From Cenarchaeum sp. (GTDB lineage Archaea > Thermoproteota > Nitrososphaeria > Nitrososphaerales > Nitrosopumilaceae), in contig CBDESU010000002.1 in NCBI GenBank assembly GCA_965242695.1, positions 1,568,001-1,632,000 of the forward strand: a DNA stretch of 64,000 nucleotides, in the 5' to 3' direction. Numbering within the stretch: position 1 is the stretch's first letter; every line of letters begins with the position of its first letter. Below the pieces are notes generated by a model, which saw only the letters and a list, made by a program, of their open reading frames with translations, ran no database searches and was not told the origin of the DNA. The translations under genes and the position numbers were made by a program. Positions 15,989 through 59,511 of the stretch are shown piece by piece.

Positions 15989-18900
15989 ATGCCCGCGGCC
16001 GCAGGGGAGGGGGGCGGTTCGGCCGGCCTGTGCCCCGATGCCGCCCGCATCGAGGTGGACTTGACGGGCCTGGGGGACGACAAAAAGGCCCGCATCAAGT
16101 GCGCCAGGGCGTACGCAGACTGCGGCAGGCGGCACGGGGAGGGGGGCAGGCTGGCGGACGCGGAAGAGTGCCTTGGGCGGGCCGTGCGCCTGCACGGCAT
16201 GTGGGCCGAGTGCTCGGATGCGTGCGGCCGGATCGCGGCACGGCTGGAGGAGGGCGGCGGCAGCGGCAGGCTGTCCGATGCCGTCGTGTGGTACGGAAAG
16301 GCGGTCGAGTACGCGGACGGGGCGCTCGGCGCGGGGGCCTCGGGGAATGCCCGAAAGGAAAAGAAGCACAGGAAGCGGAGGTTAAAGTGGGCCTCTGAGT
16401 GCATCCGGTGCTGGGACGCCCTGGCGGGCGGCGCGCAGCGGCTGCCGCCGCAGGGGGCGGAGCTGGACGGGCCGTTCGGGGCGGCGGACGCGGCTGCCGG
16501 GGGCGACGGCAGGAGGCGCGCAGGGCTGCGCGTGCAGATGGGGGACATTGAGTTGGGGCGGGGCAGGCTAGGCGCCGCGGCCGAGTGGTATGGCAGGGCC
16601 TTGGAGATCGACCCGGGAAGCGAGCGGGCCGCGCTCGGCGCTGCTAGGGCCCTTGAGCGGGACGGGCAGTGGGGCGGCGCCTCGGCGCAGTATGAAAGGG
16701 CCGCCGCGGCGGTCCCGCACCTGCGCGAAGAGTGCGCCGCGGGGTGCGCCAGGTGCGCCCTTGAATTAGAATCGGCCGGCAGCCATGCCGATGCGCTGAG
16801 GGCCGCCGAGTCGGCCGCCAAGCTGGACGCCTCGCATGCGCTCAAGTGCGCAGGCATGCACCGGACGAGGGCGGATGCGCTTGCTCATACATGGCGGGAC
16901 GGGGAAGGGGCGGCCGTGGGCGGCCGTGCGAACGATGCCGCCTCCCACTACGGCAAGGCGGTCGAGTGGTACCTGCGGGTCGCCGAGCCGGCCAAGGCGG
17001 CCAAGGGGTGCGCGCAGTGCGCTCGCGCACTCGATCGCATGGGGCTGACCAAAGAGTCCCTTTCCGCACTCGAGGCGGCCGCCAAGCTGGACGCCTCGCA
17101 TGCGCTCAAGTGCGCAGGCATGCACCGGACGAGGGCGGATGCGCTTGCGCGTAGGGGGGATGAACAGGGGACATCGGGCGCGGAAGCGGCGGCCGGGGGC
17201 GGACCTGACGCGGACGCTGCGGGCAATGCCGCCTCCCACTACGGCAGGGCGGTCGAGTGGTACCTGCGGGTCGCCGAGCCGGCCAAGGCGGCCAAGGGGT
17301 GCGCGCAGTGCGCTCGCGCGCTCGACCGCATGGGCCTGCCCGAAGAGGCCCTGAAGGCCATCGAGGCGGCCGCCAAGCTGGACGCCTCGCATGCGCTCAA
17401 GTGCGCAGGCATGCACCGCAGGCGAGGCGACGATCTGGCTAAGCGGCGGACAAAAGGCGCGCGCGGGGCAGGTACGCTGTCGGAGGCGGACGGAGGAAAA
17501 GGCGAGCATGAAAGGGGACTTGCGGCAAAAGGACGCGGCGCAAACGATGCCGCCTCCCACTACGGCAGGGCGGTCGAGTGGTACCTGCGGGCGGCCAAGG
17601 CGGACCGCGCGGGGGGACGAAATGCAGAGGCGGCCAAGGGGTGCGCGCAGTGCGCTCGCGCGCTAGACCGCATGGGCCTGCCCGGCGAGGCCCTGTCCGC
17701 AATCGAGGCGGCCGCCGATCTTGGCGGCGGCGCATATGCGCAAGAGTGCGGAGCGCGCTGCGGGCGGCTGGCCGACGGGCTTGCGAAGGAGGGGGGCGGT
17801 CCCTCGAGGGAGGCAAGAAAGATGTACGACAGGGCCCTCGCACGCTACAGGACAGCGGCGGCCGCCGGCGGCCTTGGCGCCTCGCGCGCCCTGCTTGACG
17901 CTGCCGCAGTGTGCATAAAGCTCGGCCAGTACGCCAGGGCGGCCGAAGCGTTCAACGATGCGCACAGGATCGGCGGAGGCGACCTGCGGGCCGAATGCGT
18001 CGACGGAATATGCGAGTGCGCCTGCGGGCTCGCCGCCCTCTGCGACGGCAAGGGAGTCGACAGGTGCCTCGAACTGGATGTCATGGCCGACCAGCAGGAT
18101 CGCCTCAAGTGCGCTGAACGCTGCTTGAATCTGGGCCGCCGCGAGTACGAAAACGGCCGGTACAAGCAGGCGGCGTCGTGCTATGCCGCGGCCGTCTCTA
18201 TCGACGGCGATGACATGGCGGCGCGGCTCGGCATGGCCGGCTCGCTTGCCCGGCTGGACCGCCACGAAGAGGCCTCCAAGCAGTACGAGATCATCGCGGA
18301 GCGCGGCGGCGAGCACGCGACAGCGGCCCTGTTCGGCCTGGCCGGCTTGCACGAGGCGGCCGGCCGGTACGGGCAGGCGGCCGCATCCCTTGCGGGGGCG
18401 GCCGAGGCCGATCCGGCCCGGGCTGCCGAGTGCGCGGTACGCTGCTTGAAGATGGGCCGCCGCGAGTACGAAAACGGCCGGTACAAGCAGGCGGCGTCGT
18501 GCTATGCCGCGGCCGTCTCTATCGACGGCGATGACATGGCGGCGCGGTTCGGCATGGCCGGCTCGCTTGCCCGGCTGGACCGCCACGAAGAGGCCTCCAA
18601 GCAGTACGAGATCGTCGCGGAGCGCGGCGGCGAGCACGCGACAGCGGCCCTGCTTGGACTGGCCGGCTCGCTTGCCCGGCTGGACCGCCACGAAGAGGCG
18701 ATCGGGCACTACGGGATCGTCGCGGAGCGCGGCGGCGAGCACGCGACAGCGGCCCTGCTTGGACTGGCCGGCTCGCTTGCCCGGCTGGACCGCCACGAAG
18801 AGGCGATCGGGCACTACGGGATCGTCGCGGAGCGCGGCGGCGAGCACGCGACAGCGGCCCTGTTCGGCCTGGCCGGCTTGCACGAGGCGGCCGGCCGGTA

Positions 18901-20884
18901 CGGGCAGGCGGCCGCATCCCTTGCGGGGGCGGCCGAGGCCGATCCGGCCCGGGCTGCCGAGTGCGCGGTACGCTGCTTGAAGCTGGGCCGCCGCGAGTAC
19001 GAAAACGGCCGGTACAAGCAGGCGGCGTCGTGCTATGCCGCGGCCGTCTCTATCGACGGCGATGCCATGGCGGCGCGGCTTGGACTGGCCGACTCGTGGC
19101 GCATGGACGGCAGGGGCAGCGATGCACTGCGCGAGTACTCTGGCATCAGGCGGGCCGGCGATGCGGGCCAGAGGGCGCGCGCATACATCGGGATTGCGCG
19201 CCTCTTGGCCGAAGAGTCGCGGCATGCGGATGCCGCCGGCCTCGCCTGCATGGCAGCCAAGGCGGCAGAGGAGGCGGGCGGCATCGCCGCTTGCAGCGCA
19301 GAATGCTCCGCCCTCTGCGCCGAATGCGGCGATGCCATGCAGGGGCGGGGGCTGCGCGGCGGCGCGTACGAGTGCTACGCAATGGGGCTGTCTGTCGACC
19401 CACGCAATCCCTGCGCCAACTGCGGCATTGGCGATCACATGGCGGGGCGGGGGCTGTACCAGGATGCGCTCCGGCACTACGAGGCGGCGCTGGATAAGGA
19501 CGGGGACATGATCAGGGCGCTTGTCGGCGCCGGCGCCGTGCTGTGCGAGCTTGCAAGGGGTGCGCCGCCGTCCGGAGGTACTATCCACAGCTACGATGAT
19601 GCAGAGCGCATGTTTGAGTGGGCCTTGGCGATCGAGCCGGAAAACTTTTTGGCCCACATGGGAGCCGGCAGGGCCAGCCTTGGCAGGAAAAACGACGGGC
19701 TTGAAAGCGCCGTGTCCCACTTTTGCAACGCGGCGGCACTGCGCCCCGACGACAAGGATGCCCACATGGGCGCCGGCGAAGCGCTCCGAATGCTGGCGCG
19801 ATTCCACACGGACCGCGACATGCCTGAAAAGGCATCCGAGTGCTACGGACGGGCAATGGGGCACTACGAGCGCGCCATGTCGGCGCCGGGATCGGGCGGG
19901 ATCCTTGCCCCGGGCTACTGGAAGGGTGTGTGCATGCTGCACCTGGAGCAGGACGGAAAAAAGGCTAGGGCGTTCATGAGGGGCATGCTGAAACGCGCGA
20001 TCCCTAGGGGCAGCGCCGACCACGACTTTTGCGGCAAAATCTGCGACATTTTGGGCGACTACGAAAAGGCATGCGCGCATTACGTAGAGTCTATGAAGGG
20101 CAGCGCGCTGTACCCTGATGGCTTTTACAAGACAATCGACGGGGACAGGATACACGCGGGCAGTATGATACCCGCCGGGCTCGGGGCGGCCGGCGAGGTG
20201 GCAAAGGCGGGAGGCCACGGCACACGCGCAGGAACCGGGGATCCGGATGCTGGCGGCGTGCAGATCGCATACGTGTTGGATGCCAATGTCATAATAGACT
20301 GTGCGGCTGAATCTGATCGAAACTTGGACGATGACGTCGCAAGCGCCATCGTAAAGGGCATCAAGAACGGGGACTGCCGCCTGCCGCAGGCGGCCTTTGA
20401 CGAGGCGTATGGAGTAATGAAGAACTGGGAATATAGTGATCTTGGCGCGCAGTTGCGCTCTTGGGGCGCCGAGCTCGAGTCTATGCGAAGCCGCCGCGGG
20501 GCGGATCAGTGCATGAAAAGGGCTAGAGGGGCGCTAATGATCGCCTGGCTGTACTCGAGTAAAAAGGCCAAGGAGAGGTGGCGCAACCGCAAGTTCGGCA
20601 GCGGCAAGGCGCCCTATGGCGGGGGGCCGCCAACGGGAAGGGATGTGGAGATACTCGCAACGGCGGTGCACCTGGCGGATACGGGAGGCACGTCAGGGCC
20701 ATGCCCCGTGGTCCTAGTCACGTCGGATTCGGACTTTCTCGACTTTGCGTACTACATACGCGAGGTGCTGTCCATCGAAGTGGAGCGGCCCGAATCGGCG
20801 GCTGGGCTGCTCGTCCGAGCCGCCCGCGAAAGGGAACTACGGGAGGAGCTTGGCAAACGGATGGCGGGGGGAGGATCGGGCTAG
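15989..20884 (+). CDS. Large Cys-rich TPR-repeat protein with C-terminal PIN-like nuclease domain
   Basis: TATAAG at 15961. Many TPR-like units (AAEWYGRALEIDP, AASCYAAAVSIDG, FEWALAIEPEN). C-terminus YVLDANVII...AFDEA...GRDVEILATA...VLVTSDSDF carries the PIN acidic residues. Confidence 0.8.
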   Translation: MPAAAGEGGGSAGLCPDAARIEVDLTGLGDDKKARIKCARAYADCGRRHGEGGRLADAEECLGRAVRLHGMWAECSDACGRIAARLEEGGGSGRLSDAVVWYGKAVEYADGALGAGASGNARKEKKHRKRRLKWASECIRCWDALAGGAQRLPPQGAELDGPFGAADAAAGGDGRRRAGLRVQMGDIELGRGRLGAAAEWYGRALEIDPGSERAALGAARALERDGQWGGASAQYERAAAAVPHLREECAAGCARCALELESAGSHADALRAAESAAKLDASHALKCAGMHRTRADALAHTWRDGEGAAVGGRANDAASHYGKAVEWYLRVAEPAKAAKGCAQCARALDRMGLTKESLSALEAAAKLDASHALKCAGMHRTRADALARRGDEQGTSGAEAAAGGGPDADAAGNAASHYGRAVEWYLRVAEPAKAAKGCAQCARALDRMGLPEEALKAIEAAAKLDASHALKCAGMHRRRGDDLAKRRTKGARGAGTLSEADGGKGEHERGLAAKGRGANDAASHYGRAVEWYLRAAKADRAGGRNAEAAKGCAQCARALDRMGLPGEALSAIEAAADLGGGAYAQECGARCGRLADGLAKEGGGPSREARKMYDRALARYRTAAAAGGLGASRALLDAAAVCIKLGQYARAAEAFNDAHRIGGGDLRAECVDGICECACGLAALCDGKGVDRCLELDVMADQQDRLKCAERCLNLGRREYENGRYKQAASCYAAAVSIDGDDMAARLGMAGSLARLDRHEEASKQYEIIAERGGEHATAALFGLAGLHEAAGRYGQAAASLAGAAEADPARAAECAVRCLKMGRREYENGRYKQAASCYAAAVSIDGDDMAARFGMAGSLARLDRHEEASKQYEIVAERGGEHATAALLGLAGSLARLDRHEEAIGHYGIVAERGGEHATAALLGLAGSLARLDRHEEAIGHYGIVAERGGEHATAALFGLAGLHEAAGRYGQAAASLAGAAEADPARAAECAVRCLKLGRREYENGRYKQAASCYAAAVSIDGDAMAARLGLADSWRMDGRGSDALREYSGIRRAGDAGQRARAYIGIARLLAEESRHADAAGLACMAAKAAEEAGGIAACSAECSALCAECGDAMQGRGLRGGAYECYAMGLSVDPRNPCANCGIGDHMAGRGLYQDALRHYEAALDKDGDMIRALVGAGAVLCELARGAPPSGGTIHSYDDAERMFEWALAIEPENFLAHMGAGRASLGRKNDGLESAVSHFCNAAALRPDDKDAHMGAGEALRMLARFHTDRDMPEKASECYGRAMGHYERAMSAPGSGGILAPGYWKGVCMLHLEQDGKKARAFMRGMLKRAIPRGSADHDFCGKICDILGDYEKACAHYVESMKGSALYPDGFYKTIDGDRIHAGSMIPAGLGAAGEVAKAGGHGTRAGTGDPDAGGVQIAYVLDANVIIDCAAESDRNLDDDVASAIVKGIKNGDCRLPQAAFDEAYGVMKNWEYSDLGAQLRSWGAELESMRSRRGADQCMKRARGALMIAWLYSSKKAKERWRNRKFGSGKAPYGGGPPTGRDVEILATAVHLADTGGTSGPCPVVLVTSDSDFLDFAYYIREVLSIEVERPESAAGLLVRAARERELREELGKRMAGGGSG
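18110..19090 (+). repeat. Near-identical intragenic TPR-encoding DNA repeats (321-nt and 105-nt units)
   Basis: GGGCCGCCGCGAGTACGAAAACGGCCGGTACAAGCAGGCGGCGTCGTGCTATG occurs at about 18133, 18454 and 18985. Confidence 0.85.
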
Positions 20885-37043: not shown

Positions 37044-37619
37044 TCATCTAAAGTGCCTCAGCATCTGCCCTTCCAGGCGGTCGGCTAGGTCTAGGTGCAC
37101 GGCGCCCTTGGGCTCCCGTCCGTGGCTGTTCGCCCAGGCCAGGATGTCTGCCAGCATGTATGCGGGGCCGGGACTTGCCCGGCGCAGTCCCCGATCATTG
37201 ACAAAGTCCTTGCAGTCTATGTCGCATTGAATGTAAAGGCGGTGCAGCTCGAAGTTGTGAATCCGCAAGAACGGCTCCACGTGATCGCGCAGCTGGTTCC
37301 ACATGAGGCTGTTGTATGTGCGGGACAATTTTTTGTTGCTGACGAAGCGGCGCTTTTGCTTCGGATGGCCTCGAAGCTTTGCGAACGCTCGTTTTTTCTC
37401 GAGGTGGATGCAGAGGCCCATGGTATTCCTTCCGTCGAATGAGACCTTGTCGATTATGGCCCTCTTCGCATCGCGGCTGCGGATGGTGGACATGTGGATC
37501 GGTTCGGGCCCTATGCGCCGGGCCAGGCCGGCGATGCCCTCTTTCGTGCCGACTACGATTGCCATGAACTTGTGGTTGCCCGACTCGGGGTCACCTGAGA
37601 CATCCATTCCTGCAAGCAT
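37044..37619 (-). CDS. DUF3800-like protein (putative RNase H-fold nuclease), copy 1
   Basis: 191 aa; N-terminal GMDVSG, central H, QCDxD, C-terminal LADILAWA, matching the DESG...QLAD pattern of DUF3800; two intact paralogues nearby. Confidence 0.7.
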   Translation of the reverse strand: MLAGMDVSGDPESGNHKFMAIVVGTKEGIAGLARRIGPEPIHMSTIRSRDAKRAIIDKVSFDGRNTMGLCIHLEKKRAFAKLRGHPKQKRRFVSNKKLSRTYNSLMWNQLRDHVEPFLRIHNFELHRLYIQCDIDCKDFVNDRGLRRASPGPAYMLADILAWANSHGREPKGAVHLDLADRLEGQMLRHFR

Positions 37620-38401: not shown

Positions 38402-38977
38402 TCATCCAAAATGCCTCAGCATCTGCCCCTCCAAGCGGTCGGCAAGGTTGAGGTATACGGCGCCCTTCGGCTCCCGTCCGTGGCTGTTCGCCCAGGCCAG
38501 GACGTCTGCCAGCACATGTGCAGGGCCTGGGACGGCCCTGCGCCATCCGCGATCACGGACAAAGCCCATACAGTCGTAGTCGCATTGAAAGTAAAGCCGG
38601 TGCACCTCAAAACTGTGCAGCTGCAGGAACCGATCTACAGGATCGCGCGCCAGGTTCCACATGAGGGCGTTGTATGTGCGGGACAATTTTTTATTGTTGG
38701 CGAAGCGGTGATCTTGCCTTAGACGTTCCAACAGCCTTGCGAACGTCCGTTTTTTCTCAAGGTGGATGCAAAGGCCCATGGTGTTCCTTCCGTCGAATGA
38801 GACCTTGTTTATTATGGCGTTCTTCGCATCGCGGCTGCGGATGGTGGACATGTGGACCGGCCTGGGCCCTATGCGCCGGGCCAGGCCGGTGATGCCCTCT
38901 TCCGTGCCGACTACGATTGCCATGAACTTGTGGTTGCCCGACTCGGGGTTTCCGGAGACGTCCATTCCCGCAAGCAT
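38402..38977 (-). CDS. DUF3800-like protein, copy 2
   Basis: 191 aa, same motifs (GMDVSG, QCDYD, LADVLAWAN). Confidence 0.7.
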   Translation of the reverse strand: MLAGMDVSGNPESGNHKFMAIVVGTEEGITGLARRIGPRPVHMSTIRSRDAKNAIINKVSFDGRNTMGLCIHLEKKRTFARLLERLRQDHRFANNKKLSRTYNALMWNLARDPVDRFLQLHSFEVHRLYFQCDYDCMGFVRDRGWRRAVPGPAHVLADVLAWANSHGREPKGAVYLNLADRLEGQMLRHFG

Positions 38978-43657: not shown

Positions 43658-44233
43658 TCATTTAAACAGCTTGAACATGCGCTCTTCCAAGGGCTTGGAT
43701 ATGTCGAGTCGAACGGCGCCCTTGGGCTCTATCCCACGTCTGTTCGCCCATGCTAGAACGTCGGCTAGACCATGTGCTGAACCCGGGCTCGCACGGTGCC
43801 ACCCTTGATCATGGACAAAGAACTTGCAGTCGTCGTCGCATTGAAATGCGAGCCGGTGCACCTCGAAGTCGTGCTGCCGCAAGAACTGCTCCACGCGATC
43901 GCGTATCAGATTCCACATGAGGGCGTGGTACGTACGGTACATCTTTTTGTTGGTGACTGGATTGCTCTCTCGCTTTAGTCGATCCCGGAGACTTGAGAAT
44001 GTGCGATTCTTTTCCAGGCGTATACAAAGCCCCATACGGTTTATCCCATCGAAGTTGACTTTGTTGATTATGCCATACTTCGCACTGCGGCCGACGATCC
44101 TGTTCATATGAACCGGCTCGGGACCCAAGCGCCTGGTCAGGGCCTTGATGCTCTCGTTCGTACCAATGACGATTCCCATAAATCTGTGGTTGCCCGACTT
44201 GGGGTCGCCTGAGACATCCATTCCTGCAAGCAT
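43658..44233 (-). CDS. DUF3800-like protein, copy 3 (most divergent)
   Basis: 191 aa; GMDVSG, QCDDD, LADVLAWAN. Confidence 0.7.
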   Translation of the reverse strand: MLAGMDVSGDPKSGNHRFMGIVIGTNESIKALTRRLGPEPVHMNRIVGRSAKYGIINKVNFDGINRMGLCIRLEKNRTFSSLRDRLKRESNPVTNKKMYRTYHALMWNLIRDRVEQFLRQHDFEVHRLAFQCDDDCKFFVHDQGWHRASPGSAHGLADVLAWANRRGIEPKGAVRLDISKPLEERMFKLFK

Positions 44234-48716: not shown

Positions 48717-50744
48717 TTGGGAGACCGCATCGTACTCGACACAAGCATCATTGTCAACGGCGAGACCGTGCGGATGATCGACAGGGGCATGTTCGACGGC
48801 GCAGAGGTAGTCATACCAGAGGCCGTCGTCGACGAGCTCCAGTCGCAGGCGTCGCAAAAGCAGGAGCAGGGGTTCGTCGGGTTGCGCGAGATCAAAAAGA
48901 TCCGCGACCTTGCGCCCAACCGCGGCATGACCGTCCGCTTCGAGGGGTCGCGCCCGACGGCCGACGACATACTGCTCTCCGACAGGGGGCGCATCGACGC
49001 CGTCATAAAGGACGCCGCGCGCGACGGCGGCTCGACCCTGTACACGTCCGACAGGGTCCAGGCGATGGTCGCCGAGGCCGAGGGGATCGAGACGCAGCTC
49101 GTCAGGCAGCGCGGCAGGGAGAGGGAGCTCGAATTCACGGGGTTCTTTGATGCCACTACGATGAGCGTCCACCTCAAGGAGGGCCTGCCCCCAAAGGCCA
49201 AGCGGGGCAAGCCCGGCGCGTTCACGCTCGACGACATCGGCGATGCGCCGCTCACGAGGGACCGCATGCGCGGGATCGCCGCCGAGATACTAGAGGCGTC
49301 CAGGTCAGAGGGGGCCGACACCGAGATATCGCGCCCCGGCGCGCTCGTCGTCCAGTACGGCGACTACCGCATCGCCATGACGCAGCCGCCATTCTCGGAC
49401 GGGCACGAGATCACCATAGTCCACCCGATCGTAAAGATGTCGCTCGGCGACTACGGCGTCTCGGAAAAGCTCATGGCGCGGCTCTCGGAAAAGGCCGAGG
49501 GCGTGCTTATATCCGGCCCCCCCGGGTCGGGCAAGAGCACGCTCGCCTCGGGCCTTGCAAACTTTTACCACTCGCGCGGCCGCGTCGTAAAGACGTTCGA
49601 GTCGCCGCGCGACCTCCAGGTCGAGCCAGGGATCACGCAGTATACAAAGCTCGACGGCAGCTTTGAGAATACGGCAGACATACTGCTGCTCGTGCGCCCT
49701 GACTACACCATATTCGACGAGGTGCGGCGCGTCGAGGACTTTGCAGTGTTCTCGGACCTGAGGCTCACCGGGGTCGGCATGGTCGGGGTCGTCCACGCCA
49801 ACGCGCCGCTCGACGCCGTCCAGCGGTTCATCGGCAAGATAGAGCTCGGGATGATACCGAGCGTGCTAGACACCGTCGTGTTCGTAAAGGACGGCGCGAT
49901 AGAAAAGGCGTACGAGCTAGAGCTGATGGTAAAGGTGCCCTCTGGGATGACAGAGCAGGACCTTGCGCGGCCGGTCATCGTGGTGAGCGACTTTGAGGCG
50001 GGCGTGCCCGAGTACGAGATATACACGTTCGGCGAGGAGAATGTCATCGTCCCCGTGCAGGATTCGGGCAAGGGAGGCAAGGGCGGCGGCGAGAAGAGCG
50101 GCATGGCGCGGCTAGCCGAGCAGCGCATCGGCGAGACGTTTCGGCGGTTCGACCCGGGGGCCCGCGTCGAGATAGTCTCGGACGGCAGGGCCAAGGTCAC
50201 GGTCGCCAAGAGGCACGTGGCAAGGATAATCGGCAGGGGCGGCTCGAACATCGCCGAGCTTGAAAAGGCGCTCGGCGTGCGCCTCGACATCGACGGCGTC
50301 GAGGGCGGCGGCGAGGACGACGGCGGCGGGCCGATCACGCTCGGCGGCTACGCGGGGCGCGACGGCGGCGGCAGGGACAGGGGCCGCGGCAGGGGGCGCG
50401 GCCGCGGCAGGGACAGGGACAGGGGCCGCTACGGCGACGAGTACGGCGGCGGCGACGGCGGAGACGACGGCGGCGGCGACGGGGAATATGGCGATCCCGG
50501 CGCGGACCGCGGGCCAGAGATACAGTTCACATTCTCGGAGACCCGCATGGGAACGGTGCTGACCGTCGGCCGCGAGCACATCGGCAGCCGCGCGTCCGTG
50601 TTCGTCGGCGGGCAGTACGTCGACTCGCCAAAGATCACGCACAAGGGGCAGCTAAAGTTCCCGCGCCACTCGCCGCAGGGCCGCCGCTTCGCCGAGATGC
50701 TCACCTCGCCTGGCGACATACGCGTGTACCTCAGAGCCTCCTGA
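48717..50744 (+). CDS. PINc/VapC-family ATPase with KH domain (PINA-like)
   Basis: IVLDTSII PIN domain, GPPGSGKST Walker A, IFDEVR, FESPRDLQ, IIGRGG KH motif. Confidence 0.9.
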   Translation: MGDRIVLDTSIIVNGETVRMIDRGMFDGAEVVIPEAVVDELQSQASQKQEQGFVGLREIKKIRDLAPNRGMTVRFEGSRPTADDILLSDRGRIDAVIKDAARDGGSTLYTSDRVQAMVAEAEGIETQLVRQRGRERELEFTGFFDATTMSVHLKEGLPPKAKRGKPGAFTLDDIGDAPLTRDRMRGIAAEILEASRSEGADTEISRPGALVVQYGDYRIAMTQPPFSDGHEITIVHPIVKMSLGDYGVSEKLMARLSEKAEGVLISGPPGSGKSTLASGLANFYHSRGRVVKTFESPRDLQVEPGITQYTKLDGSFENTADILLLVRPDYTIFDEVRRVEDFAVFSDLRLTGVGMVGVVHANAPLDAVQRFIGKIELGMIPSVLDTVVFVKDGAIEKAYELELMVKVPSGMTEQDLARPVIVVSDFEAGVPEYEIYTFGEENVIVPVQDSGKGGKGGGEKSGMARLAEQRIGETFRRFDPGARVEIVSDGRAKVTVAKRHVARIIGRGGSNIAELEKALGVRLDIDGVEGGGEDDGGGPITLGGYAGRDGGGRDRGRGRGRGRGRDRDRGRYGDEYGGGDGGDDGGGDGEYGDPGADRGPEIQFTFSETRMGTVLTVGREHIGSRASVFVGGQYVDSPKITHKGQLKFPRHSPQGRRFAEMLTSPGDIRVYLRAS

Positions 50745-51983: not shown

Positions 51984-52865
51984 ATGGCCACGCGCCTGCA
52001 GGTGCTCGTACCGATCTCGGCGGCCGCGGTGATCGTCGGCGTGGCCGGAATCCTGACGATACCGAGCGACTCGAAGCTAGAGTCGACCGAGTTCCCGCGC
52101 GGCACGGTACTGGTCGACGGCAGCGCGATCGAGGTGCAGGTGGCAAGCACTGCGCCGCAGCGCGCAAGGGGGCTCATGTTCCAGGAAGAGCTGCCGCCGG
52201 GCGAGGGCATGCTGTACATTCACGACGAACCGGGCGAGCATGCAAGGTGGATGCTCAACATGCAGTTTGCCGTCGATGCGGCCTGGTTCGATGCGGACGG
52301 CCGCGCCGTGCACGTCGAGCGGGACGTGCAGCCGTGCAAGTCGGCGCTCGAGCAGGCCACGTGCACGGCCGTCAACCCCGCCGCCGAGGCGCTGTACATA
52401 CTGGAGGTGCCGGCCGGCCGCGCCGCCGAGCTCGGGATCGAAATAGGCTCGCGCCTGGATGTAGTCGAGGATGCGGCGTTCCCGCGCGGGACCGTCAGCG
52501 TCGGCGGGGTCGTAATCGAGGTGCAGGTAGCCGACACGCCCGAGCTGCGCTCGCGCGGCCTCCAGTTCCAGGACGCCCTGCCCTACGACGAGGGCATGCT
52601 GTTCGTCCACGACCGGCAGGGCGCGTACTCTATGTGGATGCCGAACATGAGGTTTGCACTAGACATGATGTGGTTCGACGCCGACGGGCGCGCGGTGCAC
52701 ATCGAGCGCGGCGTGCCGCCGTGCGGTCCCGACGTGTCCTCTACGGGGCGTTGCCCGTCGTACGGGCCGGGCGATGCGGCCCTGTACGTACTGGAGGCGA
52801 CGGCCGGCTTTGCCGACATGCACGGGATCGACGGCTCCTCGCGGCTCGAGATCATCTCTGTATAG
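51984..52865 (+). CDS. Tandem DUF192-domain protein with N-terminal anchor
   Basis: Two copies of EVQVAxT...RxRGLxF...EGML...WMxNMxFxxD...LYxLE. Confidence 0.88.
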   Translation: MATRLQVLVPISAAAVIVGVAGILTIPSDSKLESTEFPRGTVLVDGSAIEVQVASTAPQRARGLMFQEELPPGEGMLYIHDEPGEHARWMLNMQFAVDAAWFDADGRAVHVERDVQPCKSALEQATCTAVNPAAEALYILEVPAGRAAELGIEIGSRLDVVEDAAFPRGTVSVGGVVIEVQVADTPELRSRGLQFQDALPYDEGMLFVHDRQGAYSMWMPNMRFALDMMWFDADGRAVHIERGVPPCGPDVSSTGRCPSYGPGDAALYVLEATAGFADMHGIDGSSRLEIISV

Positions 52866-53102
52866 GCGGCGCCCTGCAGGGGGCGGGGACATGGCGCCGC
52901 GCGCCGGCGATCGCGCCCGCTTGTGATCGGGACCGCGGCCTGCCGGTCCTGCCGGATTTTTCGCACCTGCAGGCCGGCGCGGGCGCGCCAGCAGCGCGGC
53001 GGGCTGAAGCGGTCGGCTCGCATTTGCGGGACGCCCGCGCCTGCGCTCCGTTGCCGGCCCCCTGCGCCTAGAATTTTATAGCGCCCCCGCGGGCGGCCCA
53101 TA

Positions 53103-53176
53103 GGGCCCGTAACTCAGCTTGGTAGAGTAACCGACTCATAATCGGTGAGCCGTGAGATCGAAGCTCGCCGGGCCCA
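53103..53176 (+). tRNA. tRNA with CAT anticodon, probably tRNA-Ile2
   Basis: Acceptor GGGCCCG/CGGGCCC with A discriminator (Ile-type), D stem ACTC/GAGT, anticodon stem ACCGA/TCGGT, CAT at 53137-53139; TTTTATA at 53074. Ile versus Met identity is inferred. Confidence 0.88.
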
Positions 53177-53233
53177 CCTCCTTCCCCTGCCGCGCCGGGC
53201 GCCGCCGGTGCCGATCTTGGGCGCGCGCCGCCT

Positions 53234-55405
53234 TCAACTCTTGGCCTTGCTGTACTGCAGCGCCCTCAGGACCTCGGTGTAGTCCTCGTCGCTGTACAGC
53301 TCTTTGACCGCGGCCTTTTTGTCGAGCACCCTTGCCGATCCGTCGAGCATCGACACGATCCACCTGGCATCGGCCGGCCCGAGCACCATGGTGACATGGC
53401 CGCACTCTGACTTGTCGATGCCCTCGCGCCATATCGGGAACGCAAAGAAGTCGTAGTCGTTCGCTAGGAGGATGGATGCCCGCTCCTCGGACTCCTTCAT
53501 GGCTATGGCCAGTATCTGCTGGTCCTTGTCCGCCGCCGATCTGAGGTGGCGCAGCAGCTCCTTCAGGTCCTCCTCCCCTCCATCCCCTCCGTGCCTTGCG
53601 ATGGCGCCCCTCGACGTGCGCCTTCCCTTCGTCCCGTCCACCTCTTCCTTCCGGGGCATTCCCATCTTGTCCAGTATGGCGCCGATCCTGGCCCCCTCCG
53701 CATCGCCCGCACGCTCGGGGTCGGCCCACCTGAACTTCCTGTCGATCCACCTGATCGACTCGTCGCTGAGCGGGTCGTCGACAAGCTGCCCCCTGAGGTC
53801 GTCAATGGCCTTTTCGTACCCCTCGTACCCGTATACCGTCTCAAACGCCCTCAGGCTCGCGCCGGCATATTCCTTGGTCCCCTGCCATACGCTGTCGCGC
53901 TCGGGGAGAAGCAGGTCGTCCCTGCGGAGGTCGACGTAGTCTAGCTGCGGCCCGTAAAAGCCGGGGTTTTCCAGCTCGCCTTTGCTTCGCTTCTTGTGGT
54001 TTAGGACCACGCTCGTGTCCAGTACCACGCGCATGCCGCCGCGCGCCGCGCGGCGCGGCGCGGCGGCCGGCGGCTTGGGTGCGCGCCGGGAAGCGGCCGC
54101 ACCCGCGGGAGCGCCGGCCGGCGGCACGGGCACGGCGCCTGCACCGGGAGCCTTCGGCCTGCGCGCCACGGGCCTGCGCGCCACGGGCCTCTTGTCCTCT
54201 ACGGGACGGCTCCCTTTCGAGCCAGACGCCCTCCGCACTGCAACTGCGACGACGACCGCAACGACCGCCGCCACGGCGACGGCCGCCGCCAGCACCATGG
54301 CGGTGTCTAGGCCCGTGCTTGGATATGCTTGCCCACCTGCGGCTTCTTCCCGGGGCGAATGCGCGGCGCTGGACGGTGCGCCCCTTTCCGCCCCTTCAGA
54401 CTCCCGCGGCGCGGCATCCGGCGGCCCGGGCTCGCCGCCGGGCGCGGGGACTGCAGGGCTGGCCGGAGCGGACGCTGCCGGCCCCTCGACCTGTCGCCGA
54501 TCCTCCGATGGTGCGGCCTCGACCTCCCGCTCGGGCGCCTGCATCGCCGCGCCGCCGCCCGCATCGCCAGACTCGACCCAGAACGGGGCGCGCGCAAGCT
54601 GGCCGGCTCCGGTGACGACCGCCGTGTACTCGCCATCGCCGCCCCACCGCCCGCCGGGGGGCATTATGGTCGCCGAGTAGGTGCCCGCGGTGCTGGTCGT
54701 GAGCACCCCCGAGTACACAACGCCGGCCGACGGGCCGGCGACGTCGATGCGCAGGCGCACCCCAGCGCCTGCGCCCTCGGCGGTGCCGTGCACCGTGACG
54801 GCCGCATCGGGCGAGTAGATGGGCCTTGACACGCTCGCCGACAGGCCCAGGATGGAGCCGGACGCATCTGCTGCGCCGGGATCATCCCCGGCAGCCTCTC
54901 CGCGCGCCGGCGCGGCCGCGGCGGGAACCTGCGGGGGGCGCACGACCTCAAAGTACACGGTGCCCAGGGATGCGCCCCCGTGCGATGCCGACACCTTGTA
55001 CCTGCCGGGCCTCGAGTCGGCCCCTGTGGGGAACGGCTTGTCGAGCTGGTACGGGACGGCAAAGTGGCCGCCGCGCGTGGCCAGTGCGGACTGCTCGGAC
55101 CTGGACGAGTCGGGCAGCGTCACGACGACGTCGACCTGCCTGCGCTCGCCGGACTCGGCGAACATCTGGCCGGTTATCCTGACCGTGACGGGAGTGTGCC
55201 TCTCGAGGACATAGATGGTCTCCTCGACGGCTAGCCTGCCGTGCCGGGTCTCGTCGTGCCCCTGGGCCCAGGCCTGGTGCGGCGCCGCGGCGGCCACCAT
55301 TCCGAGTACTGTCGCGAATGCGACGGCGGCGAACAGGGCCGGTAGCAGTGTGTGCATCGGCGCCTGGCGCGGCGCGCCGCGGCCGACTGCGCCGATCCTG
55401 CCCAT
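53234..55405 (-). CDS. Signal peptide + Ig-like ectodomains + TM helix + cytoplasmic PIN-like domain
   Basis: N-terminal signal (...HQAWA), two beta-sandwich domains, Pro/Ala linker, TM MVLAAAVAVAAVVAVVVAVAV-RR, then VVLDTSVV...KDQQILAIA...LLANDYDF. Confidence 0.75.
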   Translation of the reverse strand: MGRIGAVGRGAPRQAPMHTLLPALFAAVAFATVLGMVAAAAPHQAWAQGHDETRHGRLAVEETIYVLERHTPVTVRITGQMFAESGERRQVDVVVTLPDSSRSEQSALATRGGHFAVPYQLDKPFPTGADSRPGRYKVSASHGGASLGTVYFEVVRPPQVPAAAAPARGEAAGDDPGAADASGSILGLSASVSRPIYSPDAAVTVHGTAEGAGAGVRLRIDVAGPSAGVVYSGVLTTSTAGTYSATIMPPGGRWGGDGEYTAVVTGAGQLARAPFWVESGDAGGGAAMQAPEREVEAAPSEDRRQVEGPAASAPASPAVPAPGGEPGPPDAAPRESEGAERGAPSSAAHSPREEAAGGQAYPSTGLDTAMVLAAAVAVAAVVAVVVAVAVRRASGSKGSRPVEDKRPVARRPVARRPKAPGAGAVPVPPAGAPAGAAASRRAPKPPAAAPRRAARGGMRVVLDTSVVLNHKKRSKGELENPGFYGPQLDYVDLRRDDLLLPERDSVWQGTKEYAGASLRAFETVYGYEGYEKAIDDLRGQLVDDPLSDESIRWIDRKFRWADPERAGDAEGARIGAILDKMGMPRKEEVDGTKGRRTSRGAIARHGGDGGEEDLKELLRHLRSAADKDQQILAIAMKESEERASILLANDYDFFAFPIWREGIDKSECGHVTMVLGPADARWIVSMLDGSARVLDKKAAVKELYSDEDYTEVLRALQYSKAKS

Positions 55406-56069
55406 CGGCGGGCCCCGCCGAGGCGGCTAAAAACCTTGCCGGCCGCACTCGCACGGGGGGGGGGGGGGGGGGGGCGCAGCCATGGGCAGGCGCTGCGAGA
55501 TCTCCACCGCGTATCTTGCAGGACGGCGGATGCGCCTGCGTGGCGCGGCCGCGGACCGTCGGGATGGGCGTCCCGCCGGTGCGGGCGCACCCGCAGCATC
55601 CATCGACCCTGCGCCCCCCGCGGCCTGGGACGGGCCCTTCCTGGATGCTGCGCCGCCGACGGTTTAAAGGCGCCTGCGGTGCGGCCCGCCCGCGGCGCGA
55701 TGAAGAATCAGAGTTATGCCTGACGCAATGATGAAAAGGCATTTGACCGAGCTGCCGCAACCGCCGCCCCGATGCGCCCGCAACCGCCGTACGGCGCGGC
55801 CCGGGCGGGCTCGCGCAACGGCGGAGACTGCGCGCGGCCGCTGCAGCCGGGGAGTGCGCCGGATGCATGCGCCCGCATCTGCGACTTCCTACGGCCGAGG
55901 GCCCGCCGAACGCAACGGGCCGAAGAGGCGGGGCCAGGCTGCGCGCGCCGCACCGGGCGCGGCGGCTGAGCTCTTCCGCGGGCCTGGGCCTGGATGCCAG
56001 CATGCGCATGCGCGACTTTCTCACGCCTACGCGAAGGGTATATGGCCAACCGGTATGCGGCACTTCTTG

Positions 56070-56255
56070 ATGATGAGGGAGGTCAAGCCGCTCAGCGACC
56101 GGCAGTGGACCATGGTCATAGAGCAGCTGAGGGAGGGCCCTACACCCGAGATGAGGCGCACCCTCCAGATGGCTAGGGAGCAGGCCAAGTACGTGAAGGA
56201 GATCGATCATGAAGAGGTTGAAAGGCGCCGCAGGCGAGCAGCGGAAGAGTCCTGA
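56070..56255 (+). CDS. Putative antitoxin partner of GNAT toxin
   Basis: 61 aa; LSDRQW..VIEQL..GPTP resembles the C-terminal motif of DUF1778-type antitoxins; overlaps the GNAT gene; TATAT at 56039. Confidence 0.55.
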   Translation: MMREVKPLSDRQWTMVIEQLREGPTPEMRRTLQMAREQAKYVKEIDHEEVERRRRRAAEES

Positions 56256-56775
56256 GATTTCTCTGGTGCGCGCCGGCACTGATCCCGACCCAAACTTCGA
56301 TTGCCGAAACCCCGAGTTCAACGACTACTACAGGGTCGCTTCCTATAGTGACATGGAAGAGGGCCTGAACCGAACATGGCGGCATATTGGCGACGAGGGG
56401 GCCGCGCTCGTCCACATCTCGGTCGCGGCGGCGCACCTGCGCCCCGGCCGCGACCCTGCCCTGCGGGGGATGGGCTACGGCAACATCCCCGCACCCCTCG
56501 CCGGCTGCCTTGCCACGGACAAGGGCCACGAGCGGCAGGGGGTGGCCGCCAAGCTTTTGCTGTGGTCAATCGAAGAGGCGATGCGCCTGTCGGAGAGGAT
56601 CGGATGCCGCATCGTCATGCTCAACCCCCTCGACGATCCCGACACCATGCGATTCTATCGCAACCTTGGCTTTAGGTACATGCCAGCTGGCAATGGCGAG
56701 GATGATGTATTCTATATTGATATACAGGACAAGATTAGGGCTGACGCCCGCCCCCTGCCGGCCAATACGGCCTAA
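56209..56775 (+). CDS. GNAT-family acetyltransferase, TA-toxin type
   Basis: FDC.N..FNDY, IPA....LATDKGHERQGVA, IGCR, FYRNLGF. Confidence 0.8.
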   Translation: MKRLKGAAGEQRKSPEISLVRAGTDPDPNFDCRNPEFNDYYRVASYSDMEEGLNRTWRHIGDEGAALVHISVAAAHLRPGRDPALRGMGYGNIPAPLAGCLATDKGHERQGVAAKLLLWSIEEAMRLSERIGCRIVMLNPLDDPDTMRFYRNLGFRYMPAGNGEDDVFYIDIQDKIRADARPLPANTA

Positions 56776-57169
56776 CCATGATCACCAGCTTTCCGGCGCG
56801 CCTCGACATCCGTGCCTGCCTCTGACCTGTTGTGCGGTTGACCTACGGCGCTTCGCCGGTGCAGGCGTATGAAGTGTGGGCGGGCAAAGAAGGGCATTGG
56901 AAGTTGCCCTGCCGTTCGTAGTCGCAGCCGTAGCCATGCCGGCTTGGCACCTGCATGGAGTCGATCGCACTGACACTGGACGCATCAGCGCCGTGGCGAG
57001 CCGCGCCGGCTCGCCCCCGGGCCACGCCCCGTGCATATTCCGGTCTCTGGCAAACGACGCGCTCGCCTAGGGCGGACAGGGCGAAGTTGACGCTGGAGAC
57101 CTGAATGTCTACGCATGCGGCATCGGACTCCCCCGTTGGGTTTATTTTCAGAGCGGCGCGCCCCCCGCC

Positions 57170-58318
57170 GTGCCCGAGATCTGGCTCAACTACGGCTCGT
57201 CGAACGTCGTAGTCGACGTGAGGGCCGAGAACCTGGGCGAGACGATATCGGGGGGGCCCGCGGGTGCGCTAGAGGGCGAGGCGCTCGAAAAGGAGATCGA
57301 CGGCATGATCGACCTCTCTGCACCCGCCGAGATGGCCGTCCTGCACAGCACGCCGGCCGTCCATGCGCTGCTCAACTCCGTTCTCGGCATGTGCGAGCGC
57401 AGGTCGGTTGCGCCGCCGCGGATCGTCGCCGACCGGTGGGTGGCAGCGCCCCTGCGCGCCGCGCTCGCAGAGGGGGCGCGCGTCGAGTCCGGGGCGGTCC
57501 CGCAGGTCGGCGGGGATGCCGGGGGCGGGGGCCGCGACGGCGGCGGGGGCGGGCAGCCCTCGCGCACGACCTACTTTGTCGCCGAGGCCGAGCTCGACGG
57601 GCTGTTCGGGTACGAGACGGTCGCCACGCGCCTTGCGCGCCGGTTCGGCCGCGACGACGTAATGCTAGCGGCGTACGCAAAGCGGCGCGGCCCGGCGCCC
57701 GCCCCCGGCGAGGACGCGGCAGCGGCCGGCGAGGCGCGGCAGTTTGCCGACCGGTTCGAGGTTCGCGCGCTAGACATAGTGGCCGGGCCGGCGGGGATAT
57801 CGCACGTGAGGGCGGGCCACCCGTCCGAGACGTCGCGCGAGGTGCCGCGCCTGCTAGAGGCGGCCGCCGTGCGCGACGGCGCGGCCGGAAGGCACCGGTC
57901 GCTCATTGCAAGCACGGGCAAGGCGGCAAGCAACGACACGCTTGCGCGCTCGCTGTCGTCGCTGTGGAACTGCCGCGCGGCCGTCCCAAAGGGCGGCCTT
58001 GTCGTCCTGCTCGCCGAGTGCGGGCGCGGGACCGGCGCCGAGGCCGTGCAGCGGTTCGTCGAGGGGCGCCTCGACGTGGCCGACCTGCGCCGGCCGTCCC
58101 GGTACATCGACGGGATGGAGTCGCTGCTGTTCCTGGAGGAGGCGAAGCGGGACATCCAGGTCGGAATAGTCTCGGTCCTGCCGGACCTGTACACGAGGCG
58201 GCTCGGCCTCGTGCCGCTCGCCGGCGCCAGGACCGCACTCGAGTACACCCTGTCGACGATGGGGCAGAGGCACAAGGTGTCGGTCCTGCCGGATGCGGCC
58301 CGCTCGCTGCTGCGGTAG
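57170..58318 (+). CDS. LarA/DUF2088-like conserved thaumarchaeal protein
   Basis: MPEIWLNYG N-terminus, GGLVVLLAECxxGxG and terminal VLPDA, as in lactate-racemase-like folds; function not established. Confidence 0.6.
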   Translation: MPEIWLNYGSSNVVVDVRAENLGETISGGPAGALEGEALEKEIDGMIDLSAPAEMAVLHSTPAVHALLNSVLGMCERRSVAPPRIVADRWVAAPLRAALAEGARVESGAVPQVGGDAGGGGRDGGGGGQPSRTTYFVAEAELDGLFGYETVATRLARRFGRDDVMLAAYAKRRGPAPAPGEDAAAAGEARQFADRFEVRALDIVAGPAGISHVRAGHPSETSREVPRLLEAAAVRDGAAGRHRSLIASTGKAASNDTLARSLSSLWNCRAAVPKGGLVVLLAECGRGTGAEAVQRFVEGRLDVADLRRPSRYIDGMESLLFLEEAKRDIQVGIVSVLPDLYTRRLGLVPLAGARTALEYTLSTMGQRHKVSVLPDAARSLLR

Positions 58319-58320
58319 GC

Positions 58321-59511
58321 CTAGAGGAACGGTATGCTCAGCGACGAGGGCAGCGGCGCGCAGAGGACGGCAAGCCCGACTATCGCGGCGTACGCATACG
58401 CGCGGCTGCGCGGAAGCGGAGATACGTCGTCGAGCGGCCTTGCCGACATGCCGCGCATGCTCAGCGCGAGTATGAGTATGGCCATGAACCAGTAGCCGAG
58501 CACGACAAGGACTCCCATGCTCGCGTACGTGGCGTACCTGTGCCGGTCGTGGCCGAGCAGCGTGCGGGCCATGTGACCGCCGTCGAGCTGCCAGGCGGGC
58601 AGCATGTTGAGGAACGTGACGAGGAACCCGATCCACGCGGCGAACAGGACGGGCGTGAGGAGCACCTCGCTTCCGGGGCCGCCCTTGCCGAACGCGGCGA
58701 GCGCCGCCGTCATGAGCAGCGGCTCGCCCTGCCCCCACTCCTGCAGGGCCGCCCGGCCGTCGGGGCCCGGGGCGGACAGCTCTGGGGGTATGACGGGCGC
58801 CTCGTACGCGCCGTACAGGGCGACCAGCACGGCGACGGCAAGGCCGGCGACGGGCCCCGCGATCGCAATGTCGAAGAGTATTACCCTGTTGACGGTGAGG
58901 CCCCTTGACCGTATGAACGCGCCGAACGTCGGTATGCCGTACACGGGTATGCCGGGTATGAAGAACGGCCAGGACGTCCTGACGCCGTGCCACCTAGAGG
59001 CGGCAAGGTGCCCCGCCTCGTGGACGCCGAGTATGCCGAGCAGCGAGGCGGTGTACACGACGGCCGACCCGAGCGGATCGCCGATGTGCAGCACGGTGTT
59101 TGCGGCGACCGTGCGGTAGTACCCGTCGACCATTACGAACGCGACGACGGCGGCAAACAGCAGGCGCGCCACGAGCGACTCGGACATGCCGAGCCAGCGG
59201 TGGGTCTTCCTGGGCACTACGTACGCCATCACGTACAGGCTGCCGCCGCTCACGGCCGTGCTGCATGCGACGTCCATTCGCTCCAGGCGGCGGGCGAGCG
59301 CGGCAAAGTCGTCCCTAAAGCCGGGGCCGGGCCGGTCGGGCGTGCCGGCGAGCCTGAACTGGATGACGTCGGGGCGCGGCTTTACCTCTTCGACGTCGAG
59401 GGCGGCGGTGACGATCTCTACGACCTCGTCGGCCGACGGGTCGCTCACGGGAGGCGCCCCCTGATGCGGGATCCCTGCGGCGGCGCCGGCCCGCGGGCCT
59501 CTGGCGCCCAT
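58321..59511 (-). CDS. Site-2 protease (peptidase M50)
   Basis: HEAGH, PFFIP, TFGA, AGPVAG, NMLPAWQLDGGH. Confidence 0.92.
   Translation of the reverse strand: MGARGPRAGAAAGIPHQGAPPVSDPSADEVVEIVTAALDVEEVKPRPDVIQFRLAGTPDRPGPGFRDDFAALARRLERMDVACSTAVSGGSLYVMAYVVPRKTHRWLGMSESLVARLLFAAVVAFVMVDGYYRTVAANTVLHIGDPLGSAVVYTASLLGILGVHEAGHLAASRWHGVRTSWPFFIPGIPVYGIPTFGAFIRSRGLTVNRVILFDIAIAGPVAGLAVAVLVALYGAYEAPVIPPELSAPGPDGRAALQEWGQGEPLLMTAALAAFGKGGPGSEVLLTPVLFAAWIGFLVTFLNMLPAWQLDGGHMARTLLGHDRHRYATYASMGVLVVLGYWFMAILILALSMRGMSARPLDDVSPLPRSRAYAYAAIVGLAVLCAPLPSSLSIPFL

Follow-up and report, generated by a model that had tools for sequence, protein, structure and literature searches.

Can one archaeal protein carry immunoglobulin-like (Ig-like) domains on the outside of the cell and a nuclease of the PIN type on the inside, and does the outer part influence what the inner part does? 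This question is raised by an open frame of 723 amino acids on the minus strand, at positions 53234-55405 of a stretch of 64,000 nucleotides (nt) from a Cenarchaeum sp. genome; the whole stretch is called the window in the following, and coordinates refer to it unless another locus is named. PIN/VapC nucleases are normally soluble and restrained by a separate antitoxin, and to our knowledge transmembrane signalling in archaea is almost unexplored. A first reading of the letters alone, referred to below as the original prediction, had described the product as a receptor-like, single-pass membrane protein with a cytoplasmic PIN domain.

Here, we consider the coding evidence for this frame, the layout of its product, the fold of the C-terminal part, and the alternatives to the receptor-like arrangement. 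As will be seen, the frame is a real gene, and one gene. On balance, we favour the view that its product is a type I single-pass protein with Ig/MG2-like domains outside and a divergent PIN-like nuclease held at the membrane inside, for which we infer both the nuclease activity and the coupling between the two sides; our confidence in this reading is a little above even.

The gene and the layout of its product

The local G+C content is 64-78% (67-68% for the whole genome), and 70 open reading frames (ORFs) of at least 50 amino acids are listed in the 8 kb around the gene; chance long frames are thus frequent here because of the high G+C. The frame in question starts with ATG and is a single frame in the ORF listing of the window, with a G+C content at third codon positions (GC3) of 0.70-0.95 across all of its 40-codon blocks. 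Ten relatives come from a word-indexed search across 5.8 billion proteins; seven of them are 722-773 amino acids long, 57-99% identical, and cover both halves. The alignment of homologues (A1) remains in frame throughout, despite numerous indels in the stalk and the tether, and the orthologue in a congeneric genome (G004) is free of stops. The ratio of nonsynonymous to synonymous substitution rates (dN/dS, Nei-Gojobori) between the window gene and this orthologue is 0.37 for Ig-like domain 1, 0.18 for Ig-like domain 2, 0.41 for the stalk, 0.26 for the transmembrane (TM) helix, 0.69 for the tether and 0.37-0.59 for the parts of the PIN-like domain, that is, below 1 in all regions.

Contigs from four public sequencing runs were also aligned to the locus. 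One contig of run X4 covers 53100-55442, and thereby the whole gene, with 12 substitutions. Inside the gene, the length change shown by these contigs is an in-frame gap of 3 nt at 54881, found in three of the four runs, while a 1-nt gap at 53200 is intergenic; a 1-nt insertion is also present, but on an unrelated GC-rich match of 38 nt. Taken together, the GC3, the homologues, the dN/dS values below 1 and the in-frame indels establish that the 723-residue frame is coding, and 53234-55405 on the minus strand is one real gene.

On the 5' side, a TATA-like box, TTTTTA, is found within the motif GTTTTTAGCCGC, 22 nt ahead of the ATG. The same motif precedes the ATG of the G004 orthologue (locus L002) at a distance of 23 nt. 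This spacing fits an archaeal promoter and a leaderless mRNA, and the motif would then function as the promoter of the gene. The 100 nt 5' of Met458 (54034), where an internal start might be placed, are almost pure G+C, and an AT-rich promoter-like element is absent from them. Some further observations concern the upstream region. At 3676-3790 of locus L002 in G004, the promoter-like segment including GTTTTTAGCCGC is tandemly duplicated, with the copies about 55 nt apart. In the window, 55455-55474 consists of 20 consecutive G on the plus strand (20 C on the gene strand) and lies some 22 nt 5' of the TATA-like box. The run contigs seem to be cut at 55443-55500, and variation in the length of this tract could influence how the promoter is used or how the region is assembled.

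The features of the gene and of its immediate surroundings are as follows, where residue numbers refer to the 723-residue protein:

53103..53178, plus strand: CAT-anticodon tRNA, elongator Met or Ile2 (ARAGORN), in convergent orientation to the gene, whose stop codon is 55 nt away
53234..53236, minus strand: stop codon (ORF listing)
53237..54034, minus strand: residues 458-723 (266 amino acids), divergent VapC-type PIN-like domain, assigned from the predicted structure and the conserved acids
53630..53893, minus strand: residues ~505-592, helical insertion in the PIN core, approximate and with deduced boundaries
54035..54235, minus strand: residues 391-457, cytoplasmic Arg/Pro-rich tether, poorly conserved, including RRPVARRPVARRP
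54236..54301, minus strand: residues 369-390, single TM helix (Kyte-Doolittle windows of 19 residues reaching 3.05)
54302..54565, minus strand: residues 281-368, extracellular stalk rich in Ala, Pro, Gly and Glu, variable in length and sequence, with in-frame indels
54566..54850, minus strand: residues 186-280, ectodomain 2, beta-rich and probably Ig-like (strands predicted; predicted local distance difference test, pLDDT, below 50)
54935..55261, minus strand: residues 49-157, ectodomain 1, MG2/Ig-like beta sandwich (predicted structure)
55265..55405, minus strand: residues 1-47, predicted signal peptide (Arg-rich n-region, hydrophobic core at residues 16-43 by hydropathy, AWA/Q cleavage motif)
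55428..55433, minus strand: TATA-like box TTTTTA within GTTTTTAGCCGC, putative promoter element 22 nt 5' of the ATG

The protein contains two hydrophobic segments, namely the signal peptide and the TM helix. Since the net charge is -3 over the 30 residues on the N-terminal side of this helix versus +14 over the 65 residues on its C-terminal side, the protein is predicted to be oriented with the N terminus outside and the C terminus inside.

The model of ectodomain 1 has a pLDDT of about 75-85. In a structural comparison (VIA), the closest fold is that of TEP1r (2pn5_A, Z 11.1, root-mean-square deviation (rmsd) 2.4, 92 residues), and the next match is the MG2 domain of alpha2-macroglobulin (2p9r_B, Z 10.5). 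These matches span 90-92 residues, and many unrelated sandwiches likewise reach Z 8-10, while the Pfam MG2 family gives 19.7 bits on ectodomain 1, under its cut-off of 32.8. For ectodomain 2, tblastn finds weak similarity to Ig-type modules in thaumarchaeal surface proteins. The layout given in the original prediction is thus recovered for the signal peptide, the stalk, the single TM helix with its basic stop-transfer and, at the level of the predicted fold, the first Ig-like domain. Its count of two Ig-like domains is only partly shown, because the model of ectodomain 2 stays below a pLDDT of 50 and the similarity is weak.

The C-terminal domain

The fold of the C-terminal domain was examined with AlphaFold2, and the model used has a mean pLDDT of 81.6 and a predicted template modelling score (pTM) of 0.81. 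An aligner independent of Foldseek was used to compare it with 48,161 representative chains, and 24 of the 25 top rows are PIN proteins; the best is a Caulobacter VapC (Z 9.1, rmsd 2.9 Å, 107 of 127 residues). In a further structural comparison (VIA), the best match is the Shigella VapC 5ecw_A (Z 9.8, rmsd 2.8 Å, 115 of 132 residues). All of the first 14 rows there are VapC or FitB, with Z from 9.8 to 7.9 and 113-119 residues aligned out of chains of 132-142 residues, and they are followed by Nob1-type proteins at Z 6.8 and 6.7. Other Rossmann-like folds score much lower than the 9.1 of VapC, with Z 3.9 for the universal stress protein and 4.0-4.3 for tRNA synthetases.

The alignments span model residues 1 to ~221, of which about 115 are used. 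This leaves about 100 extra residues, which are mostly helices at positions 51-124 of the domain (full-length residue numbers are obtained by adding 457). The helices of the insertion in the model are 51-60, 71-86, 91-102, 106-109 and 112-124, placed between strand 2 and the core helices, and domain residues 223-266 form an added C-terminal beta/alpha piece.

The acidic residues point in the same direction as the fold. All sequences that cover the respective positions have D463, D504, D650 and D679 (20/20, 21/21, 21/21 and 20/20), and these residues follow model strands 1-4 (2-5, 40-41, 187-190 and 211-218 in domain numbering). D492, D628 and D652 are also invariant, D688 is found in 19 of 20 sequences, and altogether ten acidic positions are invariant or missing from a single sequence among those covering them. 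The first four are therefore to be regarded as candidate catalytic acids on the predicted model, and we take their spacing to resemble that of the D7/E42/D98/E119 set of Shigella VapC. Two of the traits that define a PIN domain at the level of the fold are present in the prediction, namely a three-layer alpha/beta/alpha arrangement with a central parallel sheet, and acids at the C-terminal ends of the strands.

Sequence comparison gives much less. Profile comparison by hhalign with the PIN domain of the PilT-type ATPase family, represented by 30 relatives, yields a probability of 78-81% in local mode, mainly from the first strand-helix-strand and with low per-column confidence past it, and of 7% in global mode. 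Pfam at E up to 0.1 finds no PIN family on the whole 723-residue protein either, and six-frame scans of the genome with PF01850 and PF13638 found other loci and missed this domain. In the ESM Atlas, the whole domain has a top match of 0.91 among unnamed clusters; the cluster at rank 10, which has PIN_4 on 11% of its members, is a lead only. The insertion alone gives nothing there, with matches at or below 0.78. Foldseek against the BFVD viral models returns nothing meaningful. HARP/protein-only RNase P, which heads the Foldseek rows against the PDB (E 0.03), was considered as the closest relative and rejected, its Z being 3.3-3.9 after realignment.

It has to be pointed out that several results weigh against the favoured reading. 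No family of Pfam, NCBIfam or PADLOC matches the 266-residue domain at E up to 0.1, and a sequence profile search of the PDB at E up to 10 gives nothing relevant, with two chance rows at E above 1. Two of the five AlphaFold2 models reach a pLDDT of about 81 and the other three about 54, from an input alignment of 14 rows. Foldseek finds no match in the PDB at E up to 0.001 (best E 0.03), its weak top rows being PIN-like proteins, and a Z of 9-10 is just moderately over the 7-8 that is the usual best for models without a clear match. Moreover, evolution is faster in the PIN-like part (dN/dS 0.37-0.59) than in the ectodomain (0.18-0.37). Short gene calls also exist beside the fused one (five with TM helix and PIN-like domain, three with the PIN-like domain only, two with the ectodomain only), some of them on contigs of 11-72 kb. 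Finally, one contig of run X5 (depth 8.2) appears to join 54072 to 55406, skipping 1333 nt, which would set the PIN-like domain alone behind the promoter.

With these points included, we read the predicted model of the C-terminal domain as that of a genuine PIN-like domain which is of the VapC type but has diverged strongly and, judged by profile matches, lies outside every Pfam PIN family. The PIN domain with intact acidic motifs named in the original prediction is thus supported by a predicted VapC fold and by conserved acids, so that the lack of a PIN fold, which was to count against it, is not what the model indicates; it remains, on the other hand, unseen by any sequence library.

Possible working and its alternatives

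The following course of events can be proposed. Cleavage of the signal peptide would leave two beta-sandwich (Ig/MG2-like) domains outside, carried on a disordered stalk. One helix would cross the membrane, and the Arg/Pro tether of about 67 residues would hold the 266-residue PIN domain inside, where it may act as a metal-dependent endoribonuclease at the inner face of the membrane; both the activity and an RNA substrate are assumed in this proposal. In cis control of its activity or its oligomeric state would come from the tether, from the insertion, or from the highly conserved ectodomain as it clusters on an extracellular partner that is itself conserved. Control in cis is proposed because no antitoxin gene is conserved beside the gene, and a separate antitoxin is not indicated by the loci compared.

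In its most far-reaching form, the proposal is that of a receptor-nuclease. The Ig-like domains would bind a conserved partner from the sponge host or the envelope, clustering would pair the PIN domains or free them from the tether or the insertion, tRNA or other RNA would be cut, and growth would be tuned from outside. We regard this form as quite unlikely, and IRE1-like signalling, as brought up in the original prediction, as speculative. If true, it would provide a prokaryotic counterpart of the logic of IRE1, built from a toxin fold without a separate antitoxin, and if the ectodomain controls the nuclease, a single archaeal protein would lead from a cue outside the cell to the cleavage of RNA. 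Even without coupling, the predicted structure would define a new PIN subfamily and a membrane-tethered archaeal RNase. The weight of all this is limited by a tiny family (six representatives, 2 of 61 genomes) in a single lineage.

The alternative that survives best does without signalling: the product would be an adhesin or other surface protein that keeps an RNase parked at the membrane, its ectodomain would serve structure or contact with the host, and its PIN-like domain constitutive RNA processing or decay. Membrane tethering of this kind works for bacterial RNase Y and for YacL-type PIN proteins. The conservation of the protein is relevant here. Among 11 full-length sequences, the mean pairwise identity is 86% for Ig-like domain 1 and 91% for Ig-like domain 2, compared to 55-68% for the PIN-like domain, 39% for the tether and 34% for the stalk; ectodomain 2, also with dN/dS 0.18, is the best-conserved region of the protein. 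This is expected of a structural or partner-binding module, and it is compatible with an ectodomain that meets a conserved partner, such as a component of the host or the envelope. In addition, locus L003 of genome G002 encodes a similar protein without PIN, which indicates that the unit of ectodomain, stalk and TM helix can work alone, and membrane-anchored PIN proteins are known, as the excerpted account of PIN.COG4956 (PMC5499597) shows.

A parked RNase in RNA processing or decay would be a housekeeping function, and the narrow distribution of the domain makes such a role unlikely. An exhaustive phmmer search of 1.84 billion representatives gives seven matches, six of them real; the seventh, P0015, a 696-residue repeat protein matching in five stretches at E 6e-4, was dropped as a chance match. 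The domain profile is found in 2 of 61 related genomes, namely the window genome (G000) and G004, and not in the three other congeners searched. Contigs of GTDB genomes gave 21 pattern matches and JGI metagenome contigs 174, none of which was confirmed, in collections where records of the window genome or its near kin may be excluded. The family is thus very small and confined to one lineage known from sponge metagenomes. The parked RNase differs from the favoured reading solely by the coupling; we consider it unlikely on the whole, with a chance that is nevertheless real.

It is also conceivable that the C-terminal domain is not a nuclease, and instead a PIN-like or Rossmann-like scaffold that binds a protein or nucleotide, or that the fold is wrong. 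The absence of PIN from all sequence profiles, the Foldseek result below significance, and a model built from 14 sequences with three of five models poor are all in line with this, and inactive PIN proteins such as SMG5 occur among the weaker structural matches. Against it stand the four canonical acidic positions and the further acids, kept in every sequence that covers them, and the low scores of other Rossmann-like folds relative to VapC. We hold this alternative to be improbable.

The original prediction had pointed to virions or host cues as possible stimuli of a ligand-induced dimerisation, and a third alternative is accordingly an anti-virus sensor for abortive infection, in which a virion on the Ig-like domains leads to PIN dimerisation and shutdown of the cell. 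The architecture is compatible with this, VapC-type toxins are common growth-arrest effectors, and the gene borders a spacer that is variable, with 1.7 kb in G000 compared to about 9 kb in G004. However, the ectodomain is nearly invariant and the effector varies, which is the reverse of what an arms race at a receptor would produce; since the ectodomain is the most conserved part and the PIN-like domain is less so, such a race with viruses is disfavoured. PADLOC, moreover, matches neither the protein nor its neighbours, each of the two genomes has one copy of the gene at a syntenic place, and the surroundings are mostly of the housekeeping type (GlmS-like, YjeF_N, M50 peptidase, DUF192, PilT-PIN ATPase). 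We judge this scenario distinctly improbable.

The last alternative concerns the integrity of the gene, and it is best considered together with the forms in which the family occurs. The 23 family sequences (the window protein, the G004 orthologue, and P0001-P0022 minus P0015) are distributed as follows:

Full-length fusion: 11 of 23
Fusion truncated at one end: 2 of 23 (P0005, P0009)
TM helix and PIN-like domain, starting in the stalk: 5 of 23, 360-403 amino acids (P0010, P0011, P0013, P0016, P0018)
PIN-like domain only: 3 of 23, 263 amino acids, where P0012 and P0017 begin exactly at the equivalent of Met458
Ectodomain only: 2 of 23 (P0021, P0022)

Both halves are hence carried by 13 of the 23 sequences, 11 of them at full length, and the homologues are not always split into two genes, as the original prediction had allowed they might be. 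Contig ends cannot explain all of the short forms, since some lie on the contigs of 11-72 kb mentioned above. P0017, however, is identical to the PIN part of the 383-residue P0011 and thus reflects a difference in start calling, and the first residue of P0011 itself aligns to an internal Val of the fused P0009. P0021 and P0022 are on contigs of 2-3 kb and have divergent, unrelated tails inside the GC-rich stalk that look like the result of frameshifts. These comparisons suggest that the short forms are mis-called or broken copies; the fused form appears to be the rule, and real short variants may occur in some lineages. The X5 joint between 54072 and 55406 is not accepted here as a deletion form, as it has 21 letters on one side and falls in the GC-rich 54035-54078, which is hit by many unrelated contigs. 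That the locus makes two products or is a decaying fusion, with PIN made from Met458, or TM helix and PIN from a start within the frame, while the high G+C or a chimeric assembly would have produced the long frame, is very improbable in our view: the calls at Met458 and in the stalk, some on long contigs, the ectodomain-only calls and the weak joint favour it, but the eleven full-length forms stay open through stalk and tether with many in-frame indels, start calls and apparently frame-shifted tails would account for P0017, P0011 and the ectodomain-only pair, the X4 contig spans the whole gene, and the conserved promoter motif lies upstream of the ATG, with none visible before Met458.

The setting of the gene can be described briefly. 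The genome comprises 3.89 Mb in two contigs and encodes an archaeal AmoA (393.7 bits), and the locus is present in runs labelled sponge metagenome, including X5 and X7, with no RNA run among the 16 listed; the carrier is a host-associated ammonia oxidiser. The position beside a CAT-anticodon tRNA was correctly given in the original prediction. The pairing of this tRNA with the gene is conserved in G004 and is the sole block in common at the spot (blastn, window 53057-55446), so that no conserved partner or antitoxin gene is found on either side in the G000 and G004 loci. An archaeon is expected to have CAT tRNAs of three kinds, namely initiator, elongator Met and Ile2. Among the 45 entries of ARAGORN for the whole genome, the one at 53103-53178 is the one intron-less CAT tRNA, and the remaining ones presumably contain introns or were missed by ARAGORN. 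It is not initiator-like, since it has a G1:C72 acceptor end and an anticodon stem without three G:C pairs.

Synteny between G000 and G004 returns at a LarA-like gene (window 57135-59461, 88% identity). The spacer before it, 55447-57134 in the window and L011 plus L012 in G004, contains in G000 a GNAT gene and a 66-residue ORF that have no match at the G004 locus. These two had been taken as an adjacent GNAT toxin-antitoxin pair. The GNAT assignment holds at the Pfam cut-off (27.1 vs 27), the 66-residue upstream ORF matches no family, and we regard neither of the two, which lie in the variable spacer, as part of the feature under study. In G004, what fills the spacer of about 9 kb matches multi-copy families located at other places in G000.

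The neighbours are mostly ordinary: a PIN-PilT ATPase-KH protein, an iron-dependent repressor, tandem DUF192, the LarA-like protein and an M50 peptidase, with GlmS-like, YjeF_N and other enzymes farther away. The two tandem DUF192 domains (51984-52865, plus strand, 200.9 bits over two stretches) adjoin the tRNA, on a flank that is not syntenic with G004. Elsewhere in the window, three paralogous 191-residue ORFs lie on the minus strand at 37044-37619, 38402-38977 and 43658-44233, within direct repeats of 73-89% identity spaced by 1358 and 5256 nt; their GC3 is lower than that of their neighbours, and Pfam at E up to 1 gives no match for them. For an ORF of 2382 residues at 2920-10068 (plus strand), Pfam gives no family at E up to 0.001, and a 1714-residue protein at 15740-20884 (plus strand) consists mostly of TPR repeats.

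Comparison with known systems

The closest known structures are the VapC/FitB toxins (Shigella 5ecw/3tnd, Rickettsia VapBC2 3zvk, Caulobacter VapBC1 5k8j, Neisseria FitAB 2bsq). The predicted model matches them with Z 9.1-9.8 and rmsd 2.8-3.0 Å over 107-115 residues, which covers nearly the whole toxin, and the acids after strands 1, 2, 3 and 4 are kept in all covering sequences. The sequence identity, on the other hand, is 11-19%, with no Pfam PIN match. The domain also has 266 residues compared to ~130 in the toxins, owing to the ~100 extra, mainly helical residues and the C-terminal extension, and it is preceded in the same chain by an ectodomain and a TM helix. Because no partner gene is conserved, the protein does not fall under the definition of a type II toxin-antitoxin system.

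A PIN domain anchored to the membrane within one polypeptide is also found in PIN.COG4956 (YacL-like), which according to the excerpted text of Matelska et al. 2017 (PMC5499597) has four N-terminal TM helices followed by PIN and TRAM, matches PF01850 and is almost entirely bacterial. As far as that excerpt describes it, the family is polytopic and without an ectodomain, whereas the present protein has one TM helix and a folded ectodomain. Pfam gives no TRAM match in the 723 residues.

The outer half resembles the Ig-like surface proteins of ammonia-oxidising archaea (loci L003-L010), which begin with a signal peptide, contain beta-sandwich modules that carry a motif of the W..DGEY type, and are anchored to the membrane at their C terminus. 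These proteins end in a short tail, and none of them has a PIN-like domain. The protein of G002 L003 (C1:209190-213134) starts with a signal peptide and two related domains (30% identity over 230 residues); a very extended stalk with repeats of the AEGAAEAAGSA type leads on to one TM helix and a tail that is short and basic, and PIN is absent. Since it shares the arrangement of ectodomain, stalk and anchor, this arrangement can be regarded as a standing surface-protein design of the group. Outside the window, at ~73000-79000 (minus strand) of contig C2 of G000, a 942-residue frame of extracellular type carries a domain of the Ig1 type with 30% identity to residues 58-166. The same frame has an HExxH metalloprotease-like motif, a cupredoxin-like segment and a long stalk of APDPAPPPPPP repeats.

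Within the window, the PIN-PilT ATPase-KH protein (48717-50744, plus strand) has a similar N-terminal PIN motif (VLDTS...), to which the local hhalign probability of 78-81% corresponds, covering the first strand, the first helix and the second strand. It differs in being soluble, in matching Pfam PIN and PIN_4, and in its presence in 32 of 41 relatives, and the two proteins are not close relatives. After its KH domain, this protein contains a long Gly/Arg/Asp low-complexity run, RGRGRGRGRDRDRGR... followed by GGDGGDDGGGDGEYGD.

The comparison with IRE1 is one of concept only. In eukaryotes, IRE1 combines a lumenal sensor, one TM helix and a cytosolic RNase that needs oligomerisation, where the KEN RNase is coupled to a kinase. 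The fold found here is predicted to be PIN-like and not KEN, the organism is an archaeon, and Pfam at E up to 0.1 gives no kinase or KEN family in the 723-residue protein. Searches of the full-text literature found no paper on a prokaryotic protein in which one TM helix links an ectodomain of the Ig type to a PIN nuclease, in agreement with what the original prediction had stated about this layout. What sets the present case apart is that a fold diverged past recognition by profiles, and with a large insertion, would be joined through a TM helix to a highly conserved, folded ectodomain. Membrane-anchored PIN proteins as such are already known; the protein described here is a diverged PIN-like nuclease, as the model predicts it, in a new, receptor-like setting.

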